64,000 bases of DNA from Bacteroidales bacterium (GCA_017632935.1 JAGBQJ010000013.1:5970-69969); one strand, 5' to 3'; numbered from the stretch's first letter, positions 10,169 to 33,756 are shown. Notes: generated by a model not told the origin, from the sequence alone. Numbers and translations: made by a program.

Positions 10169-10169
10169 T

Positions 10170-15595: not shown

Positions 15596-15670
15596 TGTGT
15601 TTCGATTTTGGTGTTTTCAAAAAAAAGCCGCCCGACTGGACGGCTTTTCAACATTCGACCCGATAAGCGA

Positions 15671-16342: not shown

Positions 16343-16391
16343 TGTTCTTATCTTTTTAGGGGTTAGTAATTTTGGTTAGCTATCTTTTTCG

Positions 16392-16399
16392 CAAATGTA
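16392..16399 (-). promoter_or_regulatory. -7 box (TACATTTG) for the paralog operon
   Basis: The reverse complement of caaatgta matches TAnnTTTG, ~50 nt upstream of the ATG at 16342. Confidence 0.5.
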
Positions 16400-16559
16400 T
16401 AATCTTTTTATTTACAGTAGGTTATACTGGTATTGCTTGCATTCTTTTGCGCTGGTTTGCGTAGTTTGGAGTGAAAAAAGATATTACTACACTCAAAAGA
16501 AATGAGACGATTGCGCCTTTGGACAAAAACGAGGTGGTTAAAAAAGCAAGTTCCCTAAC

Positions 16560-17690
16560 GGCAAACGGAGACCCGCGTTAGAGGGGCGTAGTTTATTTAG
16601 GGGCTTGGCTTTTTTAAGCACCGTACCCATAGAATGAGACATTAAGCGTTTACGACAAACCACTTTTCCAAATTCAGGGTGGCGGTGGGGACGATGGTGG
16701 TACGGAGCGGAGCTTTGCGGAGCGACACTTTTCCGAATACTCTACTTAGGGTGGTAGGTGGGGTAAGTGGTGGCACTTAGGAGCGAAGCGACTGCCCTTC
16801 TTTCCAAATTGTCAAAATAGGGTGGTTGGAGGGGTACGAGGTGGTACAGGAGCGGAGTTTACGAAGCGACTGTGCTTTCCAAATGCTCAAATAAGGGTGG
16901 TAGGTGGGGTTTGATGGTGGTTGGCCAGAGCGGAGCTTTAGCGGAGCGACCTGACCTGAACTTTGGGGTGGTGGCCGGGGGTGACGGCGGCACGGATGTG
17001 CGTTGGCTCAGCAGGTAAGGGGGAAAAGCGCCTGCGGCTAAGGGGCGGTGACACTCACGCAAGAATGAGAAAACCGAGCCTAAACGACTATACGAGAGTG
17101 GGATACCCTGCGCCCCGTTCGCGCCAGCGCGGCCGACCCGCCCGACAGGAGTCCGCGCACGGTTTCAATCCGAAACGGCGGCGGGCGTGCCTTTTGCGGC
17201 GGCGACCCCGAAGAGGCAGGCACCAGTATGGTCATTGCGGGCTGAGGTGGCAACGATGAGGGGACGAAACAAGATGCGCTTTAGCGCACCACAAAGGGAA
17301 CCGCCGGGCGGACGCGCAAGCAGGGGCGCAAAACAAAAGGGGCGCGGCGACCCCCGCTAATAAGTTGCGAGGTACGAGAACCGCTTGGGGGTACGGGGGG
17401 CGACAAGAAAGCCCCGAGCGAGCAAGGAGCCACGAAAGCGGTTGGCCTTGGAGCCGCAAACGCTCGCTGGAGCCGCGCCAGTGGAGCGCAGCGGAACGAG
17501 TGTCGCGGGACAGCGAAGAGCAGCGGCGGTGTTGCGCAAGGGCGGCAACCTGAAAAAGCGCACGACGTAGGAGCTCAGCATTTTTTCAGATTGACGCTCG
17601 TTATACCCTTGCGCACACCAAGGCAACCGCAAGAAGCGGCGACGAAGGGAACACCGATTTCCCCCTCCTGCTGAATTAGGTAGGTTGAGC
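16560..17690. other. ORF-free, G-rich (plus strand) non-coding block A; candidate structured RNA or repeat region
   Basis: Only short Arg/Ala/Gly/Pro-rich ORFs occur in all six frames. It is clearly GC-richer than the flanking genes and has many local GC hairpins (e.g. GTTGCgcaagggcgGCAAC, GCGCtttaGCGC). Confidence 0.5.
16663..16950. repeat. Four degenerate tandem repeats of 64-80 nt, plus a decayed fifth up to ~17010
   Basis: Unit: CTTTCCAAAT-n-AGGGTGGTAGGTGGGG-n-GGTGG-n-GGAGCGGAGCTTTRCGGAGCGAC. Unit ends are at 16726, 16792, 16870 and 16950. Confidence 0.65.
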
Positions 17691-17759
17691 GTTGGGATGA
17701 TGTGTCGTTTTTTACGTTTGTTTCGTTCTATCGTCCTTACGTCATACGTGCTTTCGACA

Positions 17760-18725
17760 CTATTTCAACCATTTTCTGTACTTGATCCAGACACGGAGCC
17801 AGATGCGGGCGATAGAGTCGATGGCATCACCAAATATCATCTTGCTGTATTTGTCGAAGTTTTGACCCCACTCGGTCTGCTCCATGAACTCTTGCATGGG
17901 CTGGGTGTTTTGGAAGGTCTCAGGAATGAGGTAGTATGAAAACAAGTAGGAGTATTGCGAAACGGCACTCATGAAATCCCATGTGTTGTCGTTATCGCCT
18001 CCCCAACCATGGGTGTATTTGCGCGTGGCCACATCGTTCTCAACATCCAAAATGAAGGGTGTAGGTTTGAGTGGCAAGGGATAACCGTCTGGATCGTAGA
18101 AGAAGCGGTTGTTGTCCTTGTCAATCTTGTAGGACTTGTTGACCTGGTCTTCCCATTTCTTCTCGATGGCTCCGTGAATGCCTTTCTCATCGGAGAATGG
18201 ACGACTGTCGCAATGCAGCGGCATGTGACAGTCGGCTATGTAGTGACTGAGGATGAAGAAACGCATGGCGATGTGGTTTCCCGTGGTAGCGATTGGACAT
18301 CCTCTGTCCTCACGGTGCAGCATCTTGAAGTTGTCGACGATGCTGTGGGATATGGACTCACATCGGTCGGCGCAGTTGCCAGCAACGCATTTGTAGGGCT
18401 TGTTGTACAACGGTGACGATTTCCGCATCAATTCATAGATGCTGTGGGTGGTAGGTAGTTTGTCGAAGGTGGTATAAGGACCGTCTTCAGTGGGCTGGTA
18501 TTTGACGATGTGGCTGGTGGACATGTCCTTGAACACCTCATCAGGGTACCAGGCACCTTGTATGACGAAGTCACGGTAGTTCTTGAACCATCTGACAAGG
18601 GCTTTTGCTTCCTTGCGGACGTCTTCGCTGACACCTTTGACAACGGCTTCGTTGTCGGTGGTGGCGATGACTTCCAATCTTTTTATGGCCATAAAGGCTA
18701 TCCATGCGTGGGAGTATTTTTTCAT
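17760..18725 (-). CDS. S1/P1 nuclease-like / zinc-dependent phospholipase C superfamily protein (putative)
   Basis: The start is set at Met 18725 (MKKYSHAWIAF) because a promoter box and a terminator occupy 18747-18788. The motif LSHYIADCHMPLHCD resembles the H-x-x-x-D-x-H-x-P-L-H metal site of S1/P1 nucleases. Confidence 0.55.
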   Translation of the reverse strand: MKKYSHAWIAFMAIKRLEVIATTDNEAVVKGVSEDVRKEAKALVRWFKNYRDFVIQGAWYPDEVFKDMSTSHIVKYQPTEDGPYTTFDKLPTTHSIYELMRKSSPLYNKPYKCVAGNCADRCESISHSIVDNFKMLHREDRGCPIATTGNHIAMRFFILSHYIADCHMPLHCDSRPFSDEKGIHGAIEKKWEDQVNKSYKIDKDNNRFFYDPDGYPLPLKPTPFILDVENDVATRKYTHGWGGDNDNTWDFMSAVSQYSYLFSYYLIPETFQNTQPMQEFMEQTEWGQNFDKYSKMIFGDAIDSIARIWLRVWIKYRKWLK

Positions 18726-18746
18726 AGTGTTGGCGTTTTGAGGCTT

Positions 18747-18754
18747 CAAAGATA
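18747..18754 (-). promoter_or_regulatory. -7 box (TATCTTTG) for the S1/P1-like gene
   Basis: The reverse complement of caaagata, 22 nt upstream of the ATG at 18725. Confidence 0.5.
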
Positions 18755-18757
18755 GTG

Positions 18758-18788
18758 AAAAAAATAGATTGCGGGTCAAGCCCGCAAT
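18758..18788 (-). terminator. Rho-independent terminator on the minus strand at the low-coordinate end of GC-rich block B
   Basis: Minus strand: ATTGCGGG-CTTGA-CCCGCAAT, then CTA, then TTTTTTT. There is no T-run on the plus-strand side. Confidence 0.6.
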
Positions 18789-18839
18789 GAGGGTTAGGCA
18801 ATGAGAGCTTTCAAGTAAGTAGATGCTTTAAGATAGCAG

Positions 18840-19870
18840 TTGAGGCAGCCGCTGGCGGGGTTTTTGCTCATCATTAAGCCCAAGCTGTGGGTAAGGCGCG
18901 ACGGCCTTTCATAAAGCTTTCTTGCAGGCGAGCCGCCTACATGCCAGATGAGGCCGCACTGGGCATGTGTCGTTTTTCTTTTCGTTGGTTTTTCGTACTA
19001 ACGTGCTTTCGTTATTCGTACTAACGAGCTGACGAAGAAGTTGGGGCTGAAAACGACTCTTGCCCAGGGCGATATAGAAGTGGAGGCAGGCCGTCGCGCG
19101 GCAGCTGGGCGGTGTTGCCGACGAACAGAGTGGCACCCGCAGGAACGAGGACGGCCACCCTGAGCGGCGGCATTACCGCACAGCATTGGGGAGGCAAGGT
19201 TGAAGCTTCCTTCTGCAAAAACCGTGACAGCGGCGGCTTGGTCGGTTAAGGCTAAAAAGAGGACTTATAGGACTGATGGGGCTTATAGAGAAGTCGGTGC
19301 TCTCATACGGGGTGCGGCTGCTGGTATTGGCCGCGTAGGTGAGCGGAACAGGCGTTTTGTGGGTGAGAGACGGCGCGACCGACTACGGCACAACAAGCTT
19401 CTTTTTATGTGTGGCTTTCCAGCGATGGTGTGGCTGGTGCGGTTGGGCGACCTGACGACGGACTGTAGCGGAGCGAGCAGACAACGGCGGAGTTTACGGA
19501 GCCATTGTCTGCCCGTCGGAGCGGAAGGTAGTTGTCAGGGCGCGAAGGGTGGGACTCTCTCGATGAAGCTGAGGGAGCATCGTTTGCGAAGGTGAAAACG
19601 CCCGTGTAGCGACCGTAGCGGCGAATGGCAGCAGCTTAGGCTTGTGCGGCTGGTTGGGATGAACACGATGTGGAGCCACCTAAGCGATGCGAGCAGGCGC
19701 AGGGGAAGGCAATGCGGAGAGGCGTTAATGGAGCGTCGGAACACAGTGAGGAACGAACCGTGTTCCGACGCGGAATGGTAGCCCGTAGCACTGACGGCCA
19801 CAAGACAAACGCTTCGCTGGGGGCGGAACACCTTGACGGGGATGGGGTGGTGATGCTATATGATAATGGT
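18840..19870. other. ORF-free, G-rich non-coding block B; candidate structured RNA
   Basis: No credible ORF in any frame. It contains a copy of the block-A repeat unit (about 19395-19512) and several strong hairpins (GCAGACAA/TTGTCTGC at 19477-19512; CGGAACAC/GTGTTCCG near 19737-19770). Confidence 0.5.
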
Positions 19871-19943
19871 CACCAAAGAGGTCATTTGCAAGCCTTGTTT
19901 TGTGATTTTTTATAATAAGGTATTTTGCCTGACAATAATTGCT

Positions 19944-19951
19944 TATATTTG
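19944..19951 (+). promoter_or_regulatory. -7 box (TATATTTG), with a TTTG -33-like element at 19924-19927; candidate promoter of the 8-gene operon
   Basis: Matches TAnnTTTG. The spacing to the upstream TTTG is 16 nt. It implies a ~300-nt AT-rich leader before 20258. Confidence 0.4.
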
Positions 19952-20257
19952 CGGCATGAATTGGCGCGAATTGTAGGCGCAAGGATTTTTGTAATAACAA
20001 TCTAAACCGTTAAGAAATAAAGAAATACACAAATACAAACATAAGACATAGCAAAGCATAACGACAACTTTCTTCTGCTTTAAAAATTGCCAATTAATCA
20101 CGAAGAAAATCTCTTGAAATTGTCAGTATGCCCACCTATAGCGTGGGACTGGACTATTTTCTGGAGATTAGGGTTACGGCAATTACCCAAAGCAGCGGGA
20201 AACGGTTAGGTTTCACGCTTTTTTATTGTCGTTCAGAAAAATACAAACAAAAAAAAG

Positions 20258-21568
20258 ATGTATATGAAAAGGCCATTTAGAATAAAAACAATAAAGAGAG
20301 CCAGAAAATGGATGAAACATCAATACGATGTGATAGCGGTGTTGGCCGTATCTTGTGTGGCTATTCTGTCTTCTTGCTCTGGTGATATAAATTCAAATTT
20401 TGATTCCCATTTTACCAATGATGGTTATTTAATACAGGATAGCACAAAACAGGATAATAAAGTACCCTTGACAAAAGCAAAGTTTTATGTTGAGGTCTCT
20501 GGAAGTATGAATGGCTTTTTTAGAGCTGGACAGCCGACAGATTTCAAAAAAGATGTTTGGCAAATACTCAGTTATTATTCACCTATTGCGCCTGGCGTGA
20601 CTATTTTGACAAATAATGGTGATGAAGGTAAAACTTATGATTTGAGTAATTTCCAGACTCAAATGAACACTGGTGCTTTTGTTTCGACCGCTTCAACGAG
20701 AGTACCTTTGATGCTTCAATCTATTATTGATAATTTGGATGCGGATAACGGGGAGGTTGCAGTACTTATTTCAGATATGAAATACAGTCCTGTTGGGCAA
20801 GCTGCGCCCAAGGTGCTGTTGACACAATACAGCACTGATGTCAGCAAGATCTTTGGACAGTACGGTAAAGCTATAAGTCTGGTTTGCGCCACATCTAATT
20901 ATCTGGACAAAAAAGGAAATTCCATTTGCGATGCTTCGCCATATTATTTTCTGATAATTGGCAACGACAGCGGTGTTGCAGAAATGCGTGATGGTATTTC
21001 CACCCTATTAACCAATGCTGGCAGGTTCGTTGACAACATTGAGAGCGGATTTAATTATGGCGGGATTAAGGAGAGTTTCGGTATTCCGAAAAAATGTTTC
21101 CAGATGGATATAAACGAGCCAACATTTGTTGAGTATGAAGAGGCTGATTCTTACGACACCTGCATCATCAATTTAAAAGTGGATTTGGCACCTTATCGTT
21201 GGATTCTGACCGATGAAAGCTATTTTGCAAGAGCTTTCAAGGCAAAAACCCTCTACGGAGCCAACCTTGTTGTAGATGACGTGAACATTGTAGTAAAAAA
21301 CATCACTGACAAGCAGTTGAAACGTACAGCAGAGGCCACGGTAAGACTAAAGCTGTTCAATATGCCCACAGATTCCGATGTCATTGAATGGACATTAGAG
21401 TTGCCTGACACGGATTACACTTTGTTTGGACAATTCTGTGGCGCGACTGCCGAAGAAGATGTTACCAAATCATATTCCATAGAAGATTTCCTTGTTGGTA
21501 TGTTCTACGGTGGTGTGGTAAATACAACGCTTAATCCCAATTACATTTTAGTTTCAAAAAATAGTTAG
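20258..21568 (+). CDS. vWA-like lipoprotein (operon gene 1)
   Basis: The alternative start at 20312 gives the lipoprotein signal MKHQYDVIAVLAVSCVAILSSC. KFYVEVSGSMNGFF is a degenerate MIDAS (E-x-S-x-S) and VAVLISDMKYS is a vWA beta-4-like strand. Confidence 0.6.
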   Translation: MYMKRPFRIKTIKRARKWMKHQYDVIAVLAVSCVAILSSCSGDINSNFDSHFTNDGYLIQDSTKQDNKVPLTKAKFYVEVSGSMNGFFRAGQPTDFKKDVWQILSYYSPIAPGVTILTNNGDEGKTYDLSNFQTQMNTGAFVSTASTRVPLMLQSIIDNLDADNGEVAVLISDMKYSPVGQAAPKVLLTQYSTDVSKIFGQYGKAISLVCATSNYLDKKGNSICDASPYYFLIIGNDSGVAEMRDGISTLLTNAGRFVDNIESGFNYGGIKESFGIPKKCFQMDINEPTFVEYEEADSYDTCIINLKVDLAPYRWILTDESYFARAFKAKTLYGANLVVDDVNIVVKNITDKQLKRTAEATVRLKLFNMPTDSDVIEWTLELPDTDYTLFGQFCGATAEEDVTKSYSIEDFLVGMFYGGVVNTTLNPNYILVSKNS

Positions 21569-21573
21569 TCGTT

Positions 21574-22017
21574 ATGAAATTACTGAAGCTGTATCAATGG
21601 ATCGCAGGAAAGTTGACCGAATTTTGCGCTCCATTCCAAAACAACGAGAGCTTGTATCAACAAGCCAGAGCCTTTTGGGGCAAGTTGGAAGGCATTTCAA
21701 CAATACTTTTAATCATCGCAGTGGTGATAGGTGTTTTGTTTGCCGTCATCTACTACAAGCCATACAACAACAAGCCAGGAAGACACTATACCCCCAAGTA
21801 TTGGGTTATTTTCCTGATTATAACATTTGTGGTGGCTTTTCTGTTGACATTGGGATTTGAATATATCTCAGTGGCACCACACTTAAAAGGCGCAATGTTG
21901 CTTGAAACTAAAATTGCACTTGGGAATGGAATCTATGCTTCAGCATTGTATTTCATTGTTTCGGTTTTGTGGTGCAACGCGCTACCGACTAACGCTTATC
22001 GATTGTTTGAATTCTAA
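21574..22017 (+). CDS. Small integral membrane protein, 3 TM (operon gene 2)
   Basis: Hydrophobic segments ISTILLIIAVVIGVLFAVIYY, YWVIFLIITFVVAFLLTLGF and IYASALYFIVSVLWCNAL. It starts 5 nt after gene 1. Confidence 0.65.
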   Translation: MKLLKLYQWIAGKLTEFCAPFQNNESLYQQARAFWGKLEGISTILLIIAVVIGVLFAVIYYKPYNNKPGRHYTPKYWVIFLIITFVVAFLLTLGFEYISVAPHLKGAMLLETKIALGNGIYASALYFIVSVLWCNALPTNAYRLFEF

Positions 22018-22029
22018 ACCCAACCCGAT

Positions 22030-23427
22030 ATGAAAAAAGTATTTGTTTTTTGCATTGGAGGTACTGGCATTCGCGTGATGAAGAGCATCACGATGCTGAT
22101 GGCAAGCGGAATGAGTACCAGCGGTTTTACCGTTGTCCCTGTTATCCTTGACCCGCACTTGGATTTAGAGGAAAAGAAGAATTTGCACTCGTTGATAGAA
22201 TCATACGAGGAAATATATCGACACTCAGTCAACAATGGGACATCAACGTTGAATTCTCTTGATGGCTTTTTCAATTCTGAAATGCTTACCATCGGAGAAC
22301 TCAATGAACAACTCAATGACACCCAACAAGCGGCTGGAAACACTGAAAAGTTCCGTTCATATATCAACGTGGCCAACCTTGGTGCAGATAATGTGAACAA
22401 CTATTTCGTACAGACGCTGTTTTCAAATAAGAATCTAAACAATCCTTTGTCGGTCGGCTTCAAGGGGAATCCCAATGTCGGTACCGTAGTGCTCGGTGAA
22501 ATGATTGAGGGAGCGGATTGGTTCAAAGCGTTTAAGACCAAATGCGAGAAAGACGACAGGGTATTTATTATTAGCTCCATCTTTGGAGGCACTGGGGCTT
22601 CAGGTTATCCGCTGCTGGAGAAAAAGATTAGAGGAGCTTCTGATAATCCAACAGTTAAAAATGCACTGATGGGAGCAGTGACTGTGTTGCCGTACTACGG
22701 GCTAAAAGATCCTACGACAACGGGCAGTGACATTGACTCGGCTAACTTCTACACTAAGACAAAAGCGGCTCTTGCCTATTACCAGAACACTGTGCAGTCG
22801 GATTATCTTTATTACGCAGGAGAAAAGACTTTGAGGCAGGTCTATGAGAATGACGAAAAGAAGCAAGAGGACACCGCTAACTTCATTGAACTGGTTGCCG
22901 CATCAGCCTTGTTTGATTTTCTAAAGAGAGAAAGACCGGACAGAAAACAATATATGACCAGGGCAATTGACGATGACGTGGAGTCATTAGACCTTGTGAC
23001 GATGGGCAGTGGCTATAAGGAAATCGTCAAGTGTGTTGCCGACTATATGATTTTGAGAACCTTTATTCAAAATCTTCCCAACGAGAAATACTTCCCTTTG
23101 AAGAAGAACAGAGGACTTGATGGAGGTTTTTACAAAGATGCAGCATTCCAATCATTGGTGCGCTTTACTGAGAAATACTATCAATGGTATTATGAACTTT
23201 CGACGAACAATCGTGCGTTTGCTCCATTGCACTACGACAGCATTAAGCAGATGGATGGATGGGTAAAAACCATCGACCTTGACGCAAAGGATGATTCATA
23301 CTATCTGCTCCGAATGATTGAGGCCAGCAATAGATACACAAAGAAGGATCATAGCAACAAATTCAGGTTCTTCCTGCAATTCGCCTATGAAGCAATAAAT
23401 GGTTACACACAGAAAATAATGAAATAA
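22030..23427 (+). CDS. Tubulin/FtsZ-superfamily-like GTPase (FtsZl-1-like, putative; operon gene 3)
   Basis: N-terminal T1-like loop VFVFCIGGTGIRV and T4-like signature SSIFGGTGASG (nt 22585-22605; compare the tubulin signature [SAG]GGTG[SA]G). No obvious FtsZ C-terminal domain. Confidence 0.55.
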   Translation: MKKVFVFCIGGTGIRVMKSITMLMASGMSTSGFTVVPVILDPHLDLEEKKNLHSLIESYEEIYRHSVNNGTSTLNSLDGFFNSEMLTIGELNEQLNDTQQAAGNTEKFRSYINVANLGADNVNNYFVQTLFSNKNLNNPLSVGFKGNPNVGTVVLGEMIEGADWFKAFKTKCEKDDRVFIISSIFGGTGASGYPLLEKKIRGASDNPTVKNALMGAVTVLPYYGLKDPTTTGSDIDSANFYTKTKAALAYYQNTVQSDYLYYAGEKTLRQVYENDEKKQEDTANFIELVAASALFDFLKRERPDRKQYMTRAIDDDVESLDLVTMGSGYKEIVKCVADYMILRTFIQNLPNEKYFPLKKNRGLDGGFYKDAAFQSLVRFTEKYYQWYYELSTNNRAFAPLHYDSIKQMDGWVKTIDLDAKDDSYYLLRMIEASNRYTKKDHSNKFRFFLQFAYEAINGYTQKIMK

Positions 23428-23430
23428 GAT

Positions 23431-26400
23431 ATGGCAAAAGTTGATTTAAATATTGTTGATAGAGGCACTAACAGTTCCGAATGGAAAGCAGAAGGAACGC
23501 CTTTGCAATCTGGCGACCTTGACAAAGTGCTTGAACAGAAGACCGACAATAGTGGTGCATTGAACTCGCTTCCCACACCTTTTGCCAGGTTTTTTGTCGC
23601 TCGCGAAGCTTTTAGAAGAGTCAATGAAGAGAAGCTGAATCCAAAGGAAGGGGCTGGCTTTGCCTATACGCAATTAGTTTCTGATATCCTTGATGTCTAT
23701 GAACTGTTGTTTAATCTGAAATACCACAAGAACAACACTTGGAAAGATGGTCAAAAGCTGGAGCTGAGAGAATGGAATAGAAAGGAGAATCTCGATTATC
23801 TCAAAGCGAAGATGCCTGTTCTATATAATTCTGTTGTAGATTACTACAAGACAGATATCCTCGAGGACAAACTGTATTTTCTCGTCTATACTGAGAATGG
23901 CAAAGAAGTGTTGTTGGCTTGCAGCTCCCCCATCACAGGCTTTGTCACACCGCCAGACATGGACAAGGCTGTTCTGAAGAAAGACAACACCGACACTATC
24001 TGTTTTACAGGTGAGCAATACCAAAACCTGCACATTAGGAGAAAATCAGGCGGGGAGTATTTCAGAGGTGATGTCAGACTGTTTGACAAGAGAGATGCTG
24101 AGTTTAAGAATTACATGTATTCAATGTTGTTTGGCACTGATACCGTTGACGAGAGATTTAAGGCCATCAAGGAATATGTGCGTAGTTTCAACAATGACCC
24201 AGAGATACGCAACGATTTTAGATTAAAGACAACTCCGGTGTTGACCGACCAGAATGACGGTTTGGTAATAAATGGGCTTTGCATACAGTCTTCAGATGAA
24301 ATTGATATCAACAGCTATTTCACTGACACCATGATTCGAGTACCTTATCGCATTTCGAGAGACACATTCAAATCGGTCGTTTATCAGAACGATGTTCAAG
24401 GTAGAAATTATGACTATTTGCTGCCTTTCAAGCCTGAAGTGATGAATCTGTTTGATGGAAAAGAACTTGACTCTGATGTACACATCAACAGAAATTCCGT
24501 AACGGTCACTTTACGCTATAATGGGAAGGAATACTCGAAAGAATACTCTCAAGACACCTTCCGTGCTGGTCAAGGTAGAATTGTTGACCTGCAAGGAGCG
24601 AAGATTAGCTTTGACCTTGGCATCTTCCCCAATATCCTATCCTATAAGGATGTCGAGAACAATTACTTCAAGGTGCTTGTGGTTGCAGCCGATGAAGATG
24701 CTGATGCCCCCAACTTCAATATCGACCAAATCAATCTTGCTTTTTTCAAGCAAGCTGAAAATGGTTGCAAGCAGATAAAAGAAGTTGTTCCTGAAGACAT
24801 GGCTGAATATGGCGTGGAGCCAGCAGCGGTACGTTCACGCCAAAAAACGGACGTAGAAGAAAGCGGCACCAAGTTCTATGAACTGTTTAACACGTCGTTT
24901 GACATGATTGAAATCAATGTCATGGGTGACACAGGTCTGTTGATGCCAGTATGGCAACACAGCCAAGCAAGCAATGAAACCTTTACCTATGCAATTGACC
25001 TTGGAACGTCCAATACATTTATGTCGCGTTGCAAGAATGACAGCCAAGGCAATCCGGACCTTAGCAGGAAGCCTGAACTCTTCAAGATGGATAAGACGAT
25101 GGTGAATTACATGCATGAGTATTCAGACGATACGCAGTATTCCATCACTCGACGCATAGAAGATTCGATTTTCAACAAGGCAAAAAAGAAAATCAAGACT
25201 GAATTTGTGCCAGCTGTCATCGATGGCAAGGACTATAGATTCCCCATCCGCACTGCTTTGTGTGGTATTCACAATAAGACCAAGAAGCCGAAATTGTTTG
25301 ACAACCACAACATCGCTTTCTTCTACGAGAAACTCATGGCGAACGACGACCAGGATGTGAACACCGACATCAAGTGGGAACAAGACGAGGACAAATTGCG
25401 CGTCTTTGTTAGAGAGCTGCTGCTCATCATCAAGTGCGATATTCTGCAAAGGAATGGCGACCTTGACAGAACCAATCTCGTTTGGTTCAGCCCATTGAGC
25501 TTTATGGGGAACACAAGAGAGGTTTATCAGAACATCTGGAACACTGAGCCAAAGAAAATACTGTTCATCCAGCCACAGCAAATCGTTCGCTATTCAGAAT
25601 CCGAGGCACCCTATTACTACTACAAGAAGATGGACTACATCAAGGATTCTGATGCCGTTACTGTCATCGATATTGGTGGTGGCTCGACTGATTTCGTGTA
25701 CTTCAAGGATAATGAGCCGCAAGTTGCCAATTCCGTCCATTTTGGATGCGATGTGCTCTGGGAAAATGGTTTCAATGCGTTTGCCAATGTTAGGGAGAAT
25801 GGTATATTCAAGAAATACGTTGACACTATTCGTTTCCAAAGGAAAGACCTTGAAGACTTGAATGAGTGCTTCAAGAATGTTGATTCCGTGAAGACCAAGG
25901 ATGTTATCAATTTCTGGCTTAGCAATGCCAAGGATTGTGACATCATCAAGTTCATGAGCCAGGACTTCAAACCCGTGTTTGCTTATCACTTAACAAGCAT
26001 CCTTTACTACATGGCCAATATGTACAAGGATAAAGGACTTGAAGCCCCGAGAACCGTGGTATTTAGCGGAAACGGCAGCAAGTACATCGACAATTTCATT
26101 TCGAGCGAAAGCAACATCCTGAAAGAAATTATTGATTTGATATTTGCGACAGTGTTTGGAGGAACGCATAATGTAAACATTAAGCTTCCTGATGAACGCA
26201 AGGAGTCGACCTGTTATGGTGGTTTGTATCGTGACAAGAACGCTCCGATAGTTAAAGATGTCGTTTACCAAGGCGATGTAACAAAGAGCTACGAAAAGGT
26301 GGGCGACATGAATAGCAACTTAGATTCGTTGAAATCTGTGCTGATGACCAAGTATAAGGATCTTGCTGCCTTATATAAGTCCGTCTTGGATTTGCTCAAA

Positions 26401-26592
26401 AAAGAGAAAATCATCGACGGGACTTCAGATACTCGTCGTTATGTCAGCAAGGCAGAGGAAGATATGGGTACACCATTCACTACCTACTACAAGACGCAAG
26501 TCAAGGAAAAGTATGGTGAAGAAGTTATCTATAACGATTCCGTGTTTTTCTTGCCCGTAATCAACAAGGTTTTTGAAATGACTAAAATCTAA
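23431..26592 (+). CDS. Large (1053 aa) protein with a C-terminal Hsp70/actin-like (ASKHA) ATPase domain (operon gene 4)
   Basis: Phosphate-1 motif YAIDLGTSNTF (nt 24991-), phosphate-2 motif VIDIGGGSTDFVYF (nt 25663-), adenosine motif VVFSGNGSKY (nt 26056-). The N-terminal ~500 aa were not recognised. Confidence 0.6.
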   Translation: MAKVDLNIVDRGTNSSEWKAEGTPLQSGDLDKVLEQKTDNSGALNSLPTPFARFFVAREAFRRVNEEKLNPKEGAGFAYTQLVSDILDVYELLFNLKYHKNNTWKDGQKLELREWNRKENLDYLKAKMPVLYNSVVDYYKTDILEDKLYFLVYTENGKEVLLACSSPITGFVTPPDMDKAVLKKDNTDTICFTGEQYQNLHIRRKSGGEYFRGDVRLFDKRDAEFKNYMYSMLFGTDTVDERFKAIKEYVRSFNNDPEIRNDFRLKTTPVLTDQNDGLVINGLCIQSSDEIDINSYFTDTMIRVPYRISRDTFKSVVYQNDVQGRNYDYLLPFKPEVMNLFDGKELDSDVHINRNSVTVTLRYNGKEYSKEYSQDTFRAGQGRIVDLQGAKISFDLGIFPNILSYKDVENNYFKVLVVAADEDADAPNFNIDQINLAFFKQAENGCKQIKEVVPEDMAEYGVEPAAVRSRQKTDVEESGTKFYELFNTSFDMIEINVMGDTGLLMPVWQHSQASNETFTYAIDLGTSNTFMSRCKNDSQGNPDLSRKPELFKMDKTMVNYMHEYSDDTQYSITRRIEDSIFNKAKKKIKTEFVPAVIDGKDYRFPIRTALCGIHNKTKKPKLFDNHNIAFFYEKLMANDDQDVNTDIKWEQDEDKLRVFVRELLLIIKCDILQRNGDLDRTNLVWFSPLSFMGNTREVYQNIWNTEPKKILFIQPQQIVRYSESEAPYYYYKKMDYIKDSDAVTVIDIGGGSTDFVYFKDNEPQVANSVHFGCDVLWENGFNAFANVRENGIFKKYVDTIRFQRKDLEDLNECFKNVDSVKTKDVINFWLSNAKDCDIIKFMSQDFKPVFAYHLTSILYYMANMYKDKGLEAPRTVVFSGNGSKYIDNFISSESNILKEIIDLIFATVFGGTHNVNIKLPDERKESTCYGGLYRDKNAPIVKDVVYQGDVTKSYEKVGDMNSNLDSLKSVLMTKYKDLAALYKSVLDLLKKEKIIDGTSDTRRYVSKAEEDMGTPFTTYYKTQVKEKYGEEVIYNDSVFFLPVINKVFEMTKI

Positions 26593-26597
26593 AGGCT

Positions 26598-28208
26598 ATG
26601 CTTGTTATTTCATTTGTAGCGTTTGGCCTTTGCCTTTGCTTTCAACTAAAGTATTTTCTTGAAACAAGGAAGCAACGAGAGTTATACTATCATTTCTTCA
26701 AAAAGAAGCAGCCATACGATGTTAGTTTAACTGAAGTTAATACAGAAGTCTATACTCAGTTAGTGCAAGTAGGTGAAGAAGGTTCAGACTTAAATCAGCT
26801 TATTGAGGAGATTAACCACTATATTCTTAAAACCAAAGGCACTACTGATTTTGCTGTCATACAAAACAAGGTAGAGCGCAAGTTGAATATGCGGTATGAC
26901 CAATCTGTTGCTAAATTGTCGTTTCCAACCCATTTCGGTCTGATGGGAACCTTCCTGGGGGTTTTTATTGGAGTTTTAATGTTTATTATTGGCTTTGATA
27001 GTACAAATGGAATAACGGACAATTCAATAAAGAACTTGCTTGAGGGCGTTCTTGTCTCTATGCTAACCAGTTTATGCGGATTGGGTCTGACCACATGGAA
27101 TAATGCCAGGGCTGGAGAAGCGAGAAAGAAGATAGAAGAAGATAAGAATGAGTTCTATGATTTTGTACAGACAGAGTTGATGCCTTCGCTGGATGTTAGT
27201 ATGGTAGCTGCTATCAGTAAATTACATCAAACAGTTGACCGTTTTGAACCAGCATTTGACAGGGTTATCAATCGTTTCCAAACCACGTTTGACAATTGCA
27301 CAAAGGCATTTGGCGATAGCTTCGAAAAGAATGTTAGGGCTGTTGCTACTGCGGTAGATGTGATGGGTAAAAACATGGATAAAATCAATGAAAATATCGA
27401 CCTTCAAGAGAGACTCCTTGCTACATTTAAGAGTGGTGAGCTGGTGCAAGGACTTGACAGATACATTGAGGCATCCAACAACTTCGTCAGTATTACCCAA
27501 TCGCTCAATAAGTTTGAAGAGGCTCGCAGGATGATGTTGGCGGCCACGCAAGAGGCCATCAATCTTCAGAACGCATATAGTGACTCGTTGCAGGTTCCTC
27601 GTGAAGTTGCCGTGCGCATCAATCAGATACTGGATAGAATTAAAGACTTCGAGGAGAATATAAATCGCATCGGAGGTCAACTTGAAAGAAGGGATATACT
27701 TGGCAATGATGTTGTGAACAAATTACAGGAACAAATCAGTGGCATATCGAAAAAGGGCAAGATTGCGGACAAGTATTTGGAAATAGCTGATGGCCGGTTG
27801 GAGGATTTATACGCTCAACAAACCAAGGTAATAAACGAGATGAACAGGCGATATAGAGAAGCACTTGAAGGACACATAGACGGCTTTGAGAAGATGATTG
27901 TGCATCAAACCGAGGAGCTTGAAAAGCGTCATGGTGACTTTATGAAGGCCATTGAAGAGCGGCTGACCATTGAAGATGTGCGCCAAGAATTTGTGAATTT
28001 GGGCAAACTGAAGGACATTGATGGAAAGATGGCCGAAGTTTCAAAGCGTGTTCCTACTTCTGACGAAATACAAAAGGCTGTTCAAAAAGCCATGCAAGAT
28101 GCAGTTCAACCAATTCAGAAGGAATTGGATGAAATGAAGAAAGACTTTAGAAAGCAAATGGAAGAATCCAAATCTGGCGTTTTCGGAGGCCTGTTTGGTA
28201 GGCGTTGA
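26598..28208 (+). CDS. MotA/ExbB/ZorA-like membrane protein with a long C-terminal coiled-coil tail (operon gene 5)
   Basis: TM1 is at the N-terminus. A MotA-type TM pair follows: FPTHFGLMGTFLGVFIGVLMFIIG and LLEGVLVSMLTSLCGLGLTTWNNA. The remaining ~360 aa are E/K/L/Q-rich and heptad-like. Confidence 0.65.
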   Translation: MLVISFVAFGLCLCFQLKYFLETRKQRELYYHFFKKKQPYDVSLTEVNTEVYTQLVQVGEEGSDLNQLIEEINHYILKTKGTTDFAVIQNKVERKLNMRYDQSVAKLSFPTHFGLMGTFLGVFIGVLMFIIGFDSTNGITDNSIKNLLEGVLVSMLTSLCGLGLTTWNNARAGEARKKIEEDKNEFYDFVQTELMPSLDVSMVAAISKLHQTVDRFEPAFDRVINRFQTTFDNCTKAFGDSFEKNVRAVATAVDVMGKNMDKINENIDLQERLLATFKSGELVQGLDRYIEASNNFVSITQSLNKFEEARRMMLAATQEAINLQNAYSDSLQVPREVAVRINQILDRIKDFEENINRIGGQLERRDILGNDVVNKLQEQISGISKKGKIADKYLEIADGRLEDLYAQQTKVINEMNRRYREALEGHIDGFEKMIVHQTEELEKRHGDFMKAIEERLTIEDVRQEFVNLGKLKDIDGKMAEVSKRVPTSDEIQKAVQKAMQDAVQPIQKELDEMKKDFRKQMEESKSGVFGGLFGRR

Positions 28209-28219
28209 TACTGAGCATT

Positions 28220-29041
28220 ATGGACGGAAACAATAATGGTTCGTTTTGGCCGAGTTACGTGGACGTTATGACAACGCTGTTTGCCATAATGCTCGTGTTG
28301 TTTGCCGTGTCTTTCAGTCGATTCAAAATCAAAGAGAAAGAATTGACAGAAAAAGTCGAAGAGCTTAGAGATACGGAAACAAGGCTTCAGGAGATTGTGG
28401 ATGAATACGACGATATTCTGAAGATTTATTCCACTGTTGGAAAAATCGACGCGACAGACTATTTCGGCTACAACAAGCCCTATCTGAAACATTTGTTCCA
28501 GATAAATGTGGAGTATCAGACGAAGGAATATGCCATCAATAAGCTGAAGCTTGATTTGACTGATGTAAACGCGGCCAACAAAAAAAGAGATAGCATCGTT
28601 GCCGCTGGTGAGTTGATAAAAAACACCATTCTTGAATTGAATAGTAGCGTTCCTGATACTATAGAGAATAACATCAAATTCCTCGTTATCATCGAGGGTC
28701 AATCTTCAAGGATTCCTTTCAACGAAGGGCCATGGAGAAACAATTACACCCTCTCCTATCTAAGGGCACAATACCTGAATGCGTTTTGGAAAGAACATGG
28801 CATTGATTTGAATAGCATTCCGAGATGTGAACTTATTATTTCTGGTAGTGGCGAGGAAGGTGTACCGAGAGAAGTGCCAGATAAAACAAGGCTCACTCAA
28901 TTATTCCCCAATAGCGTCGATTACCAAAAGCAATGGCATAAGATAGAAGAAAGGAATCAGCGTTTCTTAATAAACATCGTGCCAGTGTTGGGTAATATCG
29001 ACAGCACAAGAGAAAAGATTGAAAAGATAAAAGGCAAGTAG
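28220..29041 (+). CDS. MotB/ZorB-like protein with an OmpA-like peptidoglycan-binding domain (operon gene 6)
   Basis: FWPSYVDVMTTLFAIMLVLFAVS contains the conserved plug/TM Asp (nt 28262-28264). C-terminal FLVIIEGQSS...NNYTLSYLRAQYL is OmpA-like. A TTG at 28205 is an alternative start. Confidence 0.7.
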   Translation: MDGNNNGSFWPSYVDVMTTLFAIMLVLFAVSFSRFKIKEKELTEKVEELRDTETRLQEIVDEYDDILKIYSTVGKIDATDYFGYNKPYLKHLFQINVEYQTKEYAINKLKLDLTDVNAANKKRDSIVAAGELIKNTILELNSSVPDTIENNIKFLVIIEGQSSRIPFNEGPWRNNYTLSYLRAQYLNAFWKEHGIDLNSIPRCELIISGSGEEGVPREVPDKTRLTQLFPNSVDYQKQWHKIEERNQRFLINIVPVLGNIDSTREKIEKIKGK

Positions 29042-29042
29042 A

Positions 29043-30206
29043 ATGGGTGCGTTATGGTCTGAAGATTACGAAAAGGTGTTTGGCAAGCCAACAAAGTGGT
29101 CGCTTTTTTCGGAGGACGAAGAGGCGTATGAGGCTTTCCGTAAGACCATCATAAACTCACCTCATTACGTGTACGATAAGGATAAGCTGCCTTTTACAGG
29201 TGTGAAAGTCTATGGTTACGATTTGTATTTATTGAAGCTTACTATCGACCAGAAAAAAGCAGAGGGCAAGAAACTGTTTTATATCAAGGACGAAACACCT
29301 GGTTTAGCCAAGGTTCTTGCATTTGGCTATTTTAACAAAAACAGTCAATTGTTTTATTTGCTTGCCAACAGCTTGATAAGAAAGACGGATTTCCAACAAA
29401 AGATGAAGAAGGATTCGTCTCTTTATTGGCCAGTCTACAGGTTGCAAGCTAAAAGCGAGATAAGAAAATGCGATGCCGATACGAAGGATGAACAAGGCCG
29501 AGCCTTGCAATTAGAGTTGTTTCAACCAGAAGGCTATCGCATGATTGAGGACGTGGATTGTTCCGCATCCTTAGCTGCAGCTTATGCGCTTGGTCAGGAA
29601 GCTGATTTTACGAAGTGGAAAGGGATGGATGGCAAGACACTCGCGGAAACATATCCCTTTTATAGCGGAAGCTATTCTGAGCTTATTGATATAAAAACTA
29701 CTTGGAGCAAACTTCGTTCTCTGAAGGAAAAGCCCACACCGATTGTTGAAGAAAATGGCACAGACAAGCTATCGTTGTTTAATAAGATCATCACTCCTCT
29801 TATTCAGCACAAAGAGAAAGCAGCAGCCAAAAAAGTTGCACATAAGCGCAAGGAGTTGACCGAAATACAATGCTTTTTGATAGACGAAGGGCAAAGTGAA
29901 AAGTACAGCGCAAGGGGATGCTATTATGTGAAAGAAGAAACCATCAAAGTTTTTGCTGGTGCGGTGTTATCCACCGATGTTTCGTCTACGCTTAGGTATT
30001 CACTTGCGGACTACCAACGTAGATCTTTCATCAAGGAGCATTGCTCAACTAAGAAGTCAAAATATACACTGAAAGAAGATTATTACTTTGATTCGGCAGA
30101 CACTGCTGCACTTTATGTGATGGGACAGATTGTCGAAGGATTATCGGTGTGGATGACAATTGATGGCAAATCATTGGAGGAAAGAATCAATGAAGAAGTA
30201 TATTAG
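29043..30206 (+). CDS. Hypothetical protein with two DUF4357-like motifs (operon gene 7)
   Basis: Internal duplication: DCSASLAAAYALGQEADFTKWKGMDGKTLAE and FDSADTAALYVMGQIVEGLSVWMTIDGKSLEE. These resemble the SPSxAAxxxxGxxxNGxxxWKxxxGKxL tail of DUF4357. It starts 1 nt after gene 6. Confidence 0.5.
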   Translation: MGALWSEDYEKVFGKPTKWSLFSEDEEAYEAFRKTIINSPHYVYDKDKLPFTGVKVYGYDLYLLKLTIDQKKAEGKKLFYIKDETPGLAKVLAFGYFNKNSQLFYLLANSLIRKTDFQQKMKKDSSLYWPVYRLQAKSEIRKCDADTKDEQGRALQLELFQPEGYRMIEDVDCSASLAAAYALGQEADFTKWKGMDGKTLAETYPFYSGSYSELIDIKTTWSKLRSLKEKPTPIVEENGTDKLSLFNKIITPLIQHKEKAAAKKVAHKRKELTEIQCFLIDEGQSEKYSARGCYYVKEETIKVFAGAVLSTDVSSTLRYSLADYQRRSFIKEHCSTKKSKYTLKEDYYFDSADTAALYVMGQIVEGLSVWMTIDGKSLEERINEEVY

Positions 30207-31047
30207 TATAGCTTTGGTCTTTGTGGTTGTGCTGCTTATTATGGCTTTGATTATTCGAGGTTCGAATGATTCAGAAGAGGTGTATGATGGGTTCGTACAA
30301 CAGGTTGAACAAAACGACACGCCTTCGTCGAGCAATCCTGTTGGACAACTGCGGACAGGACTGGAAATCCCATGCTATGATTTTGTGGTAGATGAACAGA
30401 TAATGGCTAAGCGAGGATATACTGTTTCGTTTAATCCAGATACCAAGCTGCCCAACTGGGTTGCGTATGAGCTGACTGCCGATGAGACAGATGGGCCTTG
30501 GACAAGGAAAGGTTTAAGGTTCGTCCCTGACCCATATTGTAAAGGAGAACAGGCAGACAGAGAAGACTATAGAAACTCGGGGTATTCACATGGTCATTTG
30601 GCTCCTGCGGGAGATATGAAATGGGACAGCTTGGCCATGATTGAGAGTTTCTATTACACGAATTGCATACCACAAGATGCCAATTTGAATACAGGAAAAT
30701 GGCACCAGCTGGAGGAAAAAACTAGAAAACTTGCAAGAGAATATGGCAACGTCTATATCGTTACGGGGCCAGTTATTCAATATGATTCAATAGAGAGAAT
30801 TGGGAATCACGGAATACCTGTGCCTATAGCTTGTTACAAGGCTCTTATGATTCGCAACAAGGAACGCTACTCGGCTATAGGGTTCGTCATGCTCAATGGA
30901 GGCGAACAGCGATCAATGAAAGAATGTGCCTGTACTGTGGATGAGCTTGAAGCGTTGCTTGGCTTGAACATGTTTTACAATCTGCCTAATGACATAGAAG
31001 AGGGCGTTGAAAGCAAAGTAACTTGGGCCGATTGGAATCTGCGGTAG
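30190..31047 (+). CDS. Signal-anchored DNA/RNA non-specific endonuclease (NucA/EndoG beta-beta-alpha-Me family; operon gene 8)
   Basis: MKKYISIALVFVVVLLIMALII anchor. Catalytic region YSHGHLAPAGD (nt 30589-30597 = HGH) and NCIPQDANLNTGKW. It overlaps gene 7 by 17 nt. Confidence 0.75.
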   Translation: MKKYISIALVFVVVLLIMALIIRGSNDSEEVYDGFVQQVEQNDTPSSSNPVGQLRTGLEIPCYDFVVDEQIMAKRGYTVSFNPDTKLPNWVAYELTADETDGPWTRKGLRFVPDPYCKGEQADREDYRNSGYSHGHLAPAGDMKWDSLAMIESFYYTNCIPQDANLNTGKWHQLEEKTRKLAREYGNVYIVTGPVIQYDSIERIGNHGIPVPIACYKALMIRNKERYSAIGFVMLNGGEQRSMKECACTVDELEALLGLNMFYNLPNDIEEGVESKVTWADWNLR

Positions 31048-32150: not shown

Positions 32151-32166
32151 TGGCTTTTCTCCTTCT

Positions 32167-32236
32167 TGTCCCGCTGTCCCATCTGTCCCACTGTCCCACG
32201 AATGGTACATTTGGGACGGTGGGACACTTGGGACAC
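32167..32236. repeat. Iteron-like array: 4x TGTCCC(A), then 3x inverted (T)GGGAC, spaced 8-9 bp
   Basis: Direct copies start at 32167, 32175, 32184 and 32192. Inverted copies start at 32213, 32221 and 32230. The array lies in the 89-nt gap between the ATPase stop and the primase start. Confidence 0.65.
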
Positions 32237-32239
32237 TTC

Positions 32240-33415: not shown

Positions 33416-33756
33416 GCCTTGCCTCCTTTCTTTGAGTAATTGTCATTGAGTAGTTGCTCGATGTCTCGTCGTCGGTAATAGATTTTGTTATTTATCCGGG
33501 TATAAGGCAGAGTGCCATTGCTTCGTAGTGTCTGCAAGGTGCGCAGACTGACGTGTAGAGCGAGCATGACATCCTGATTATCAACCCAATCCTTCAAGCC
33601 GTTTTCCTCACTGTCGCTGTCATCGATAACGAGGTCGGGATAGGCCTCCCGAAGGGCTTTAAGGCAAGGGCACTGTTCAAGTGCTTGCCTGAAGAGGTCT
33701 TTGTGGCCATTGGCAGTGTTTGCTATGCCGATGCCGACGAATTTAGAGCTGCTCAT
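33412..33756 (-). CDS. Excisionase-family/AlpA-like HTH protein
   Basis: VMLALHVSLRTLQTLRSNGTLPYTRINNKIYYRRRDIEQLL (HTH_17-like). It overlaps its neighbours by 4 nt. Confidence 0.65.
   Translation of the reverse strand: MSSSKFVGIGIANTANGHKDLFRQALEQCPCLKALREAYPDLVIDDSDSEENGLKDWVDNQDVMLALHVSLRTLQTLRSNGTLPYTRINNKIYYRRRDIEQLLNDNYSKKGGKA

Follow-up and report, generated by a model that had tools for sequence, protein, structure and literature searches.

A conserved Bacteroidota gene cassette with a divergent tubulin-like protein, a giant ASKHA ATPase partner and a ZorAB-like motor pair

Are a tubulin-like protein and a giant protein with an actin- or Hsp70-like ATPase half, encoded next to each other in a Bacteroidales bacterium, partners in one system, and what kind of system would that be? 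The question is posed by a stretch of 64,000 nucleotides (nts) (GCA_017632935.1 JAGBQJ010000013.1:5970-69969; the whole stretch is called the window, and positions are counted from its first letter). A preliminary description, made from the sequence itself, had drawn attention to two open reading frames (ORFs) at 22030-23427 and 23431-26592, 3 nts apart, and both are there with that spacing. They are the third and fourth genes (g3 and g4) of eight + strand genes that form one tight operon at 20258-31047, in which neighbours overlap or are 1-12 nts apart. The two are obligate genomic partners, fused in at least one case. What the preliminary description missed is that the pair sits in a conserved system of four to six genes with a ZorAB-like motor, and that the lineage of g3 had already been described. 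The four core genes of the window are:

20258-21568, + strand: g1, 436 amino acids (aa), a predicted lipoprotein that opens the conserved core
21574-22017, + strand: g2, 147 aa, a small membrane protein, the second core gene
22030-23427, + strand: g3, 465 aa, ATG start, a predicted tubulin/FtsZ-superfamily GTPase-domain protein
23431-26592, + strand: g4, 1053 aa, ATG start, a giant protein with a C-terminal ASKHA ATPase half

When one genome per species was scanned by pattern, at least 551 stretches proved to encode a relative. The best 80 of these, with one Phocaeicola vulgatus locus added, make up a sample of 81 non-redundant loci, which were examined by tblastn and by iterated profile searches of called ORFs. 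Directly upstream of g2-g3, g1 is present in 79 of the 81, and g2 lies between g1 and g3 in 77. The count for g3 itself is 79, plus two copies missed solely by ORF calling, and for g4 it is 76, plus two partial copies at contig ends. Only three loci are without g4, each with the contig ending just past g3. Wherever sequence is available the order is g1-g2-g3-g4, and the linkage is kept down to 33% identity for g3 and 23% for g4, in Bacteroidales, Sphingobacteriales, Cytophagales and Flavobacteriales. A protein of 1611 aa (P0370) is a natural fusion of the two: its residues 1-416 match g3 and 528-1480 match g4 (BLASTP E=1e-47), the g4-like part beginning at the SxPxPFAR motif considered below. 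Since the order is invariant in the 81 loci and a natural fusion exists, the adjacency of g3 and g4 is not due to chance. The co-occurrence analysis that the preliminary description had proposed thus finds the two consistently linked.

The best 80 stretches all come from Bacteroidota except for two metagenome-assembled genomes (MAGs) labelled otherwise. These two MAG contigs (L016 and L011) carry the labels 'Escherichia coli' and 'Lachnospiraceae bacterium', and their cassette is 76-77% identical to the Bacteroidales one; they are most likely mis-binned contigs rather than cases of cross-phylum transfer. In a few loci genes of the cassette are split (g4 is called as two ORFs in L015 and L049, and g5 or g6 is called twice in L062 and L054), for which frameshifts, pseudogenisation or assembly errors may be responsible.

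Beyond the Bacteroidota, the same four genes in the same order are found on cyanobacterial plasmids:

8505-16788 of Gloeothece verrucosa PCC 7822 plasmid Cy782204 (L097): core of g1-like, small, tubulin-like and giant ASKHA proteins
7213-15836 of a Picosynechococcus PCC 8807 plasmid (L098): core of g1-like, small, tubulin-like and giant ASKHA proteins

The giant cyanobacterial protein aligns to the g4 profile with an hhalign probability of 99.4% (E=1e-21), and the first protein to g1 with a probability of 85%. The Gloeothece core is on a MOBP mobilizable plasmid, beside a DUF3987 protein. Coiled-coil-like proteins, and not a ZorAB-like pair, come after the cyanobacterial core; a ZorA-like identity for these downstream genes was tested and rejected.

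The tubulin-like protein and its ASKHA partner

Relatives of g3 are numerous: at E<=1e-3, clustering at 50% identity leaves 1590 of them as representatives, 402 of which reach E<=1e-30, and most are 450-520 aa long; 457 relatives of g4 were present among the candidates scored. The glycine loops of g3 and the SxPxPFAR motif of g4 (residues 46-53) are invariant or nearly so down to 20-30% identity. Because relatives are so many and the motifs are kept at such distances, g3 and g4 are real conserved genes and not chance ORFs.

The preliminary description had placed two Gly-rich loops of g3 where tubulin T1 and T4 are expected. FCIGGTGIRV is found at residues 7-16 (given earlier as ~8-17) and FGGTGASG at 185-192, exactly as claimed. 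With two further segments, the set of loops becomes T1 (IGGTG, 9-13), a T3-like GFKGNPNVG (143-151), T4 (GGTGASG, 186-192), which has one residue more than the canonical GGGTG(S/T)G signature, and a T5-like LPYY (220-223). An alignment of 61 family members, about 30% identical to the query, has invariant G10, G11 and G13 in T1, G143, G146, P148 and G151 in the T3-like GxxGNPxxG, F185-G189 and G192 in T4, and P221-Y222 in the T5-like segment. GFKGNPNVG aligns to the T3 region of CetZ 4b45, and T4 with its flanking strand and helix to CetZ/FtsZ chains.

Searched alone, g3 of the window matches just one Pfam family, Tubulin (PF00091; E=0.0032, 18.2 bits, under the cut-off of 33), with no Tubulin_2 match at E<=0.1, and by phmmer its T4 loop weakly matches an FtsZ/CetZ chain of archaeal origin. 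When the 61 family members are scanned singly, Pfam Tubulin is found in 59 (best E=5e-7) and Tubulin_2 in 56 (best E=1.3e-7), and no other Pfam family in more than two. With the family profile run against all PDB sequences, the 17 best matches are FtsZ/CetZ, headed by CetZ 3zid (E=0.005). An AlphaFold2 model of moderate confidence (predicted local distance difference test, pLDDT, 63.5; predicted template modelling score, pTM, 0.69) was compared with the PDB by Foldseek, and the 50 best matches are all tubulin, FtsZ or CetZ, with E values from 1e-3 and probabilities of 0.97-1.00, at low template modelling (TM) scores of 0.22-0.41. The tubulin fold proposed earlier is in this way borne out by Pfam, by the PDB profile search and by Foldseek, and a Rossmann-type or P-loop fold, the alternative looked for, did not appear. 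For a tubulin/FtsZ nucleotide-binding fold, the support that comes from the model is moderate.

Past residue ~283 the g3 model is mostly helical, and its confidence is low at 267-283. A conserved Q279...E287 of the family cannot be equated with T7. The earlier remark that g3 has no obvious FtsZ C-terminal domain fits the helical part of the model, short of being proved by it.

Which tubulin lineage does g3 come from? A tblastn search of plasmids gave distant relatives on cyanobacterial plasmids, among them a 511-aa protein of the Gloeothece verrucosa PCC 7822 plasmid that is annotated 'tubulin-like domain-containing protein' and scores 40.8 bits with Tubulin_2, for which the cut-off is 27. It aligns to the g3 family profile over 405 columns with an hhalign probability of 99.9% (E=6e-36). 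Because a protein that passes the Tubulin_2 cut-off aligns in this way, g3 is assigned, by profile alignment, to the FtsZl1/Tubulin_2 lineage (PF13809), of which it is a short form. FtsZl2 was rejected as an assignment, being a proteobacterial family that still has T6/T7 and whose genes lie in no conserved context. A phage origin was also rejected, there being no g3 relative in 50,697 phage records; IMG/VR gave 12 matches.

Makarova and Koonin defined FtsZl1 (~900-1100 aa; 913-1133 aa in their tables) and FtsZl2 in 2010 (PMC2875224), and a later study equates FtsZl1 with Pfam Tubulin_2 (PMC9871819). FtsZl1 has an FtsZ-like domain at the N-terminus, a long coiled coil and an alpha-helical C-terminal domain; T6-H7 was not found in it, and genes for vWA, OmpA-like, GTPase and kinase proteins occur in its operons (PMC2875224). 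Additional file 5 of that paper includes a Cyanothece 8802 arrangement of vWA, FtsZl1, B7 and a COG1360 'flagellar motor protein', a D. deserti arrangement of a 421-aa protein, a 108-aa protein and FtsZl1, and a 1626-aa DnaK-like protein beside the FtsZl1 of Magnetospirillum (PMC2875224). In g3, as in FtsZl1, the tubulin/FtsZ GTPase domain is very divergent, T1 and T4 are separated by inserts, and neither T6-H7 nor an FtsZ C-terminal domain can be recognised. Unlike FtsZl1, g3 and its relatives, at 465 and 450-520 aa, are without the coiled coil or a ~500-aa helical extension, and g3 of the window is under both Pfam thresholds. Operons of both kinds open with a protein that is exported or in the membrane and with a small one, and FtsZl1 operons often end with a ~550-aa membrane protein and a MotB/OmpA-like one; a MotB/OmpA-like partner is present here too (g6), while the vWA identity of g1 is unproven. 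However, g1-g8 include neither the P-loop 'new GTPase' nor a protein kinase, and the giant ASKHA protein, an obligate partner here, is undescribed as a component there. Both this lineage of tubulin-like proteins and the overall logic of such operons had been described from computational work in 2010 (PMC2875224).

The partner, g4, is made up of two halves:

23431-24972, + strand: N-terminal half, residues 1-514
24973-26592, + strand: C-terminal half, an ASKHA (actin/Hsp70/MreB-fold) ATPase domain and then a helical tail

In the N-terminal half, the motif quoted in the preliminary description, LNSLPTPFARFF, is found at residues 44-55. The AlphaFold2 model (pLDDT 76, pTM 0.63) has residues 1-50 disordered, followed by SxPxPFAR, a helical bundle and a beta-rich domain, with pLDDT mostly 70-89 over residues 60-550. 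Single-sequence and profile searches gave this half no relatives in Pfam or PDB, so that the earlier statement that the N-terminal ~500 aa are unrecognised is true at the sequence level.

For the C-terminal half the ASKHA fold suggested earlier is upheld by motifs and by fold comparison. The phosphate-1 (AIDLGTSNT, 521-529), phosphate-2 (DIGGGSTD, 747-754) and adenosine (FSGNGSKY, 878-885) motifs are all there. Across 29 homologues of 20-71% identity, no variation is seen at D523, G525, T526, E723, D747, G749, G750 and G880 and hardly any at G882 and S883, and since residues of the catalytic motifs are invariant, the ATPase site is under selection. Foldseek returned 336 PDB matches at E<=1e-3 for the model, led by MreB/Mbl, the BiP/Hsp70 nucleotide-binding domain (NBD), ParM, actin and glucokinase, at target-normalised TM scores of 0.29-0.49. 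The sequence matches are confined to the phosphate-2 region: in Pfam to Ppx-GppA (28.2 bits against a cut-off of 27, over 63 residues), and in the profile search of the PDB to MreB, actin, FtsA and exopolyphosphatase, all at that motif. The C-terminal half is an ASKHA ATPase at the superfamily level, with its active-site motifs intact. Of the 'Hsp70/actin-like' label given to g4 earlier, the superfamily part therefore stands and the Hsp70-like part, at the family level, does not. An Hsp70 chaperone was rejected at that level, there being no PF00012 or DnaK NCBIfam match; Hsp70 NBDs are no closer to g4 than MreB or ParM in the fold search, and what follows the ATPase domain in the model is a short helical tail, with no Hsp70 substrate-binding domain.

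Motor pair, membrane proteins and terminal genes

Downstream of the core in the window is a pair of genes for membrane proteins:

26598-28208, + strand: g5, 536 aa, ZorA-like
28205-29041, + strand: g6, 278 aa counted from TTG, ZorB/MotB-like

The g5 protein has three predicted transmembrane segments with the MotA/ExbB/TolQ-type motifs GLMGTFLGV and SMLTSLCGLGLTT (in the family, the stator motifs GLMGTF..G and AM..S..GL.LTT), and a tail of ~360 aa predicted to be alpha-helical, coiled-coil-like and cytoplasmic; the tail region, 185-536, matches coiled-coil proteins only. Matches of g5 to ZorA models number nine in PADLOC (best E=2.5e-8) and, for subfamilies, three in NCBIfam, all of them far under the curated cut-offs. 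In a search of the PDB with the family profile, type I ZorA (8vvn_C) is matched at E=7.5e-4, type II ZorA (8vvi_F) at E=2.4e-3 and E. coli ZorA (8qyh) at E=0.025, and ZorA chains are the only motor proteins among the 60 best matches listed. The g6 family profile matches Shewanella type I ZorB (8vvn_B) over its full length at E=1.7e-12 and E. coli ZorB (8qyd_F) at E=1e-6, as against just E=0.01 for flagellar MotB, and g6 matches PADLOC ZorB1 at E=1.9e-9. It has a single transmembrane helix with a conserved ion-channel Asp (FWPSYVDVMT); among complete N-termini, 19 of 20 share this Asp of the FWPSYVD(L)MT segment. On the periplasmic side lies an OmpA-type peptidoglycan-binding domain (NYTLSYLRA) with a conserved NxxLSxxRA motif. 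As judged by these profile matches g5 and g6 are ZorAB-like, their closest solved relatives being the ZorA and ZorB of Zorya. The TTG start of g6 at 28205 is probably too early, as homologues begin at MDG..., for which there is an ATG at 28220.

Of the 81 loci, 53 have g5 and 47 have g6. In more distant loci a conserved bitopic membrane protein (cluster C0, in 35 loci, L037-L084) is encoded once or twice between g4 and g5. Proteins of this cluster carry a signal peptide, a periplasmic domain, a single transmembrane helix, a charged coiled-coil linker and, at the C-terminus, one or two copies of a beta-rich domain; the two members scanned had no Pfam match.

The first two core proteins are also of the envelope. 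There is a single N-terminal hydrophobic segment in g1, and in a 30-sequence alignment the lipobox Cys40 is invariant, as are the motifs E79-x-S81-G-S83-M84 and S172-D173. The arrangement ExSGSM...SD resembles a metal-ion-dependent adhesion site (MIDAS), and a vWA fold was hence suspected. Pfam gave one match for 30 members (E=0.11) and the PDB profile search none, and an hhalign comparison with an integrin I-domain sequence gave a probability of 0.5%, so that none of the three supports it. By hydropathy g2 has three predicted transmembrane segments; it had no match above threshold in Pfam, PADLOC or NCBIfam.

The operon of the window ends with two accessory genes:

29043-30206, + strand: g7, 387 aa, accessory, with a C-terminal DUF4357
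30160-31047, + strand: g8, 295 aa, accessory, NucA/Endonuclease_NS, a DNA/RNA non-specific endonuclease

Besides scoring 41.6 bits with Pfam DUF4357, for which the cut-off is 38.4, g7 matches the PADLOC defence-candidate models PDC-S14 (E=7.4e-16) and PDC-S57. It is found in 11 of the 81 loci, always after g6, and is confined to the closest clade(s). The g8 protein scores 164 bits with PF01223, and the hydrophobic segment at its N-terminus would be a signal or an anchor. Its gene accompanies the cassette in 10 loci from two clades, like g7 among the closest only, and its nuclease is a candidate effector. Other clades end with a trypsin-like peptidase or a retropepsin-like aspartyl peptidase in place of g7-g8. 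The TTG start of g8 (30160), like that of g6, is probably too early; the most likely Met is that of MKKYISIAL..., at about 30190.

Function weighed against known systems

What would such a cassette do? The ZorA5B2 complex of Zorya is a rotary motor that is driven by protons and binds peptidoglycan, and its ~70-nm cytoplasmic tail relays the signal of phage invasion, by which soluble effectors are recruited and activated (PMC11946911, PMC11890865). The g5/g6 pair is nearer to ZorA/ZorB than to any other solved 5:2 motor, and has the stator motifs, the transmembrane Asp, the peptidoglycan-binding domain and the long helical A-subunit tail. As in Zorya the motor pair is encoded with soluble cytoplasmic proteins, here also with a nuclease, and is carried on mobile islands. 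The differences are that no PADLOC match to ZorC, ZorD, ZorE, ZorF or ZorG was found among g1-g4, g7 and g8, and that the motor pair is dispensable, being absent from one third of the loci and from the cyanobacterial versions. What accompanies the pair here in place of those proteins is a tubulin-like GTPase together with an ASKHA ATPase, a lipoprotein and a protein with three predicted transmembrane segments.

A constant core with exchanged nuclease or peptidase genes is the pattern by which Kaur, Burroughs, Iyer and Aravind (2020) assigned tubulin- and HSP70-containing operons to conflict systems; their predicted DO-GTPase/GAP1 systems include some with tubulin or HSP70 components (PMC7159879). 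The present cassette resembles these systems in that they, too, bring together tubulin- and HSP70-superfamily proteins, transmembrane components and variable effectors, including peptidases; they also have vWA components, and were proposed to form multimeric assemblies that depend on nucleoside triphosphates (PMC7159879). However, the tubulin (Firmicutes, Actinobacteria) and HSP70/GrpE themes are separate there and not an adjacent obligate pair, and that paper has no MotAB/ZorAB-like module ('MotA' has 0 occurrences) (PMC7159879). The FNIII component of those systems is absent from g1-g8. Membership, which would call for one or two TRAFAC-clade DO-GTPases and a GAP1 protein, was rejected, as neither Pfam nor NCBIfam found a P-loop GTPase domain among g1-g8; for GAP1, which is without a library model, absence is deduced from the operon having no unassigned soluble protein of that kind.

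The reading we favour, with confidence and doubt about equally balanced, is that the cassette is a membrane-anchored conflict system, directed against phage or mobile elements and working in a Zorya-like manner. Perturbation of the envelope would be sensed by the g1 lipoprotein, by g2 and by the peptidoglycan-bound g6 dimer of a 5:2 g5/g6 ion-driven motor, and ion flow and rotation of the g5 tail would carry the signal to the cytoplasm. There it would engage the g3/g4 NTPase pair in place of ZorC/ZorD. GTP- and ATP-dependent assembly or conformational switching of g3/g4 might set a threshold, in an arrangement reminiscent of FtsZ tethered by the actin-like FtsA, and the pair might localise or license a variable effector, here the NucA-type nuclease with the DUF4357 protein. 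The likeness to FtsZ-FtsA, a tubulin-superfamily GTPase and an ASKHA-fold protein encoded in one operon and at the membrane, is an analogy only: there is no specific sequence relationship, FtsA being just a weak phosphate-2 match to g4; g4 is three times larger than FtsA and has a unique N-terminal half; g3, unlike FtsZ, is without the C-terminal domain and tail peptide; and the system is accessory, not one of division. A bolder version, which we think distinctly improbable, has g3 and g4 forming one obligate membrane assembly (a co-polymer, or a filament with a nucleator or tether) whose formation the turning tail of the ZorAB-like, ion-powered motor would trigger or drive mechanically. If true, this would be an immune or envelope-surveillance machine that unites both cytoskeletal NTPase superfamilies with a rotary motor, and it would have no described counterpart.

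For a conflict system, the role inferred here, speak the swapped nuclease and peptidase genes, the defence-candidate match of g7, carriage on mobile elements, and insertion sites that vary and are at times beside restriction- or OLD-like genes. Several findings weigh against it. No PADLOC-DB v2 model matches g1-g4. The NCBIfam scores of the motor pair are far from their cut-offs (26.8 bits against 190 for ZorA_1 with g5; 19.7 against 400 for ZorB1 with g6). Because Spirosoma/Fibrella-type as well as cyanobacterial versions are without g5-g6, the ZorAB-like motor is not essential to the core. The export signal of g8 means that the nuclease may act outside the cytoplasm or be unrelated cargo, and many chromosomal copies of the cassette lie amid genes of a housekeeping or envelope kind (PEPCK, PPDK, glycoside hydrolases, GH43, amylase, an efflux pump or capsule assembly). 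The T7 'synergy' loop and the GTPase-activating C-terminal domain of FtsZ type, on which hydrolysis coupled to polymerisation depends, could not be identified in the sequence of g3 or in its moderate-confidence model, and for these reasons polymerisation of g3, and any GTPase activity coupled to it, is speculative.

That g3 and g4 are functionally unrelated neighbours, for instance an Hsp70-type chaperone beside a Gly-rich nucleotide-binding enzyme, could draw on the weak family scores of the window proteins taken alone (Tubulin 18 bits against 33; Ppx-GppA 28 bits over 63 residues). With an adjacency that is invariant across the 81 loci to ~23-35% identity and holds in another phylum, a natural fusion, no Hsp70 Pfam match or substrate-binding domain in g4, and fold searches that give just tubulin/FtsZ for g3 and ASKHA for g4, it is exceedingly improbable, and by co-occurrence and fusion it is effectively refuted. 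A cassette in service of the mobile element itself, through TubZ- or ParM-like segregation or positioning, or as a conjugation or entry-exclusion accessory of Bacteroidales integrative elements, is suggested by the carriers (an integrative island here, a conjugative element in P. vulgatus and plasmids in cyanobacteria) and by the NTPases TubZ (tubulin-like) and ParM (actin-like) being classic plasmid partition motors (PMC2875224). We allow it a slim chance. Pfam and NCBIfam found no centromere-binding adaptor or DNA-binding protein in the core, four core proteins are membrane or periplasmic, partition is needless for an integrated element, many chromosomal copies are without mobile genes within 10 kb, and g3/g4 do not resemble TubZ or ParM more than they do the rest of their superfamilies.

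The membrane character of the core has a different meaning if the cassette is a housekeeping-type machine for envelope or membrane remodelling, in which a tubulin-like/actin-like cytoskeletal element, tethered to the membrane and with a stator-like motor to power or position it, shapes, repairs or vesiculates the Gram-negative envelope and the peptidases and nuclease are unrelated or processing factors. This is the rival to be taken most seriously, though we hold it to be on the unlikely side. It would account for four of six core products being membrane or periplasmic and for the peptidoglycan-binding motif of g6; many copies are chromosomal and outside islands, with those of environmental Bacteroidota beside genes for capsules, efflux and glycans, Cyanobacteria have the core too, which makes it an old one, versions without the motor exist, and membrane remodelling was predicted in 2010 for the related FtsZl1 operons (PMC2875224). 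It does not sit easily with a patchy distribution and with an integrase island, conjugative elements and plasmids as carriers, with terminal nuclease and peptidase genes that are swapped between clades, with the resemblance of g7 to defence candidates, or with closest solved relatives of g5/g6 that are immune and not flagellar, Tol or Ton motors. The probability left over after these readings is reserved for explanations outside those considered.

The operon is undescribed in the full-text literature that was searched, outside of which most subscription journals lie. Apparently new are the short-form tubulin-like protein with an obligate, sometimes fused, giant ASKHA partner, the recognition of the membrane pair as ZorAB-like, and the distribution on Bacteroidota and gut mobile elements. 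None of the six core proteins has an NCBIfam r20 match above the curated cut-off, and every component is annotated 'hypothetical' despite its abundance in gut Bacteroidales; a close P. vulgatus homologue of g3 (P0033), to which NCBI gives the name 'hypothetical protein', appears in the index of 745 assembly-collection blocks. The combination of three machine types in one cassette is unusual. If confirmed, it would mean that tubulin- and actin-superfamily NTPases can be obligate partners outside cell division, and that ZorAB-type rotary motors couple to modules beyond ZorC-G, which would widen 'Zorya-like' immunity. It would also provide the first experimentally tractable model, in culturable gut Bacteroidales, for the FtsZl1 systems predicted in 2010. 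Should the cassette affect susceptibility to phage or plasmids, this would matter for the gut microbiome, given its spread on Bacteroidales mobile elements.

The carrier island and its surroundings

Directly downstream of the operon in the window is the backbone of a mobile element:

31086-37033, - strand: mobile-element backbone, recognised by Pfam domains and low GC content

By Pfam it encodes a DUF6371/Zn-ribbon primase-like protein, an AAA_25+HTH protein, an HTH_17 excisionase-like protein and a tyrosine integrase, along with a 435-aa ORF without an assigned role. The operon has a GC content of 0.39-0.43, compared with 0.53 in the upstream flank (14-20 kb). The 'mobile island' of the preliminary description is supported by these genes adjoining the low-GC operon, and with an integrase/primase-like gene set directly downstream the operon is the cargo of a small integrative element. 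A search for direct repeats of att sites around 18.8-37.7 kb gave only short repeats at chance level.

Elsewhere the carriers and insertion sites vary. In Phocaeicola vulgatus the identical eight-gene arrangement is inside a conjugative element, after traM, DUF4138 and the T4 coupling protein. Some loci adjoin mobile or defence-like genes (VapE-like primase, UvrD-like helicase, DUF4435/AAA_21 and HSDR_N nuclease), and at times the insertion is beside restriction- or OLD-like genes. The cassette is patchily distributed, as cargo of integrative and conjugative elements.

Upstream of the operon, ~16400-20000 is an ORF-poor region of ~3.6 kb with a GC content of 0.53-0.54 and an unusually high GC skew of 0.16-0.21. 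Its sole sizeable ORF (339 aa, TTG start, - strand) has no Pfam match; neither an Rfam family nor a tandem repeat was found in the region, and megablast against plasmids gave nothing. Further upstream is a tRNA-Lys(CTT) at 13467-13540, the only Rfam match anywhere in the window. After it come, in tandem on the - strand, three DUF6266 paralogues (14126-14812, 14837-15595 and 15671-16342), the first with a short Bac_DNA_binding-like C-terminus.

A second low-GC stretch (0.34-0.42), at 51626-59845 on the + strand, holds a restriction-modification-like cluster. It contains genes for an N6_N4 DNA methylase of 622 aa and an Eco57I/MmeI-type methylase of 1008 aa, an ORF of 227 aa, and a gene for an 883-aa ResIII helicase that has a RE_endonuc domain at its C-terminus. 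Between this cluster and the g1-g8 operon are the housekeeping genes for RuvB, LeuRS and a fucosidase.

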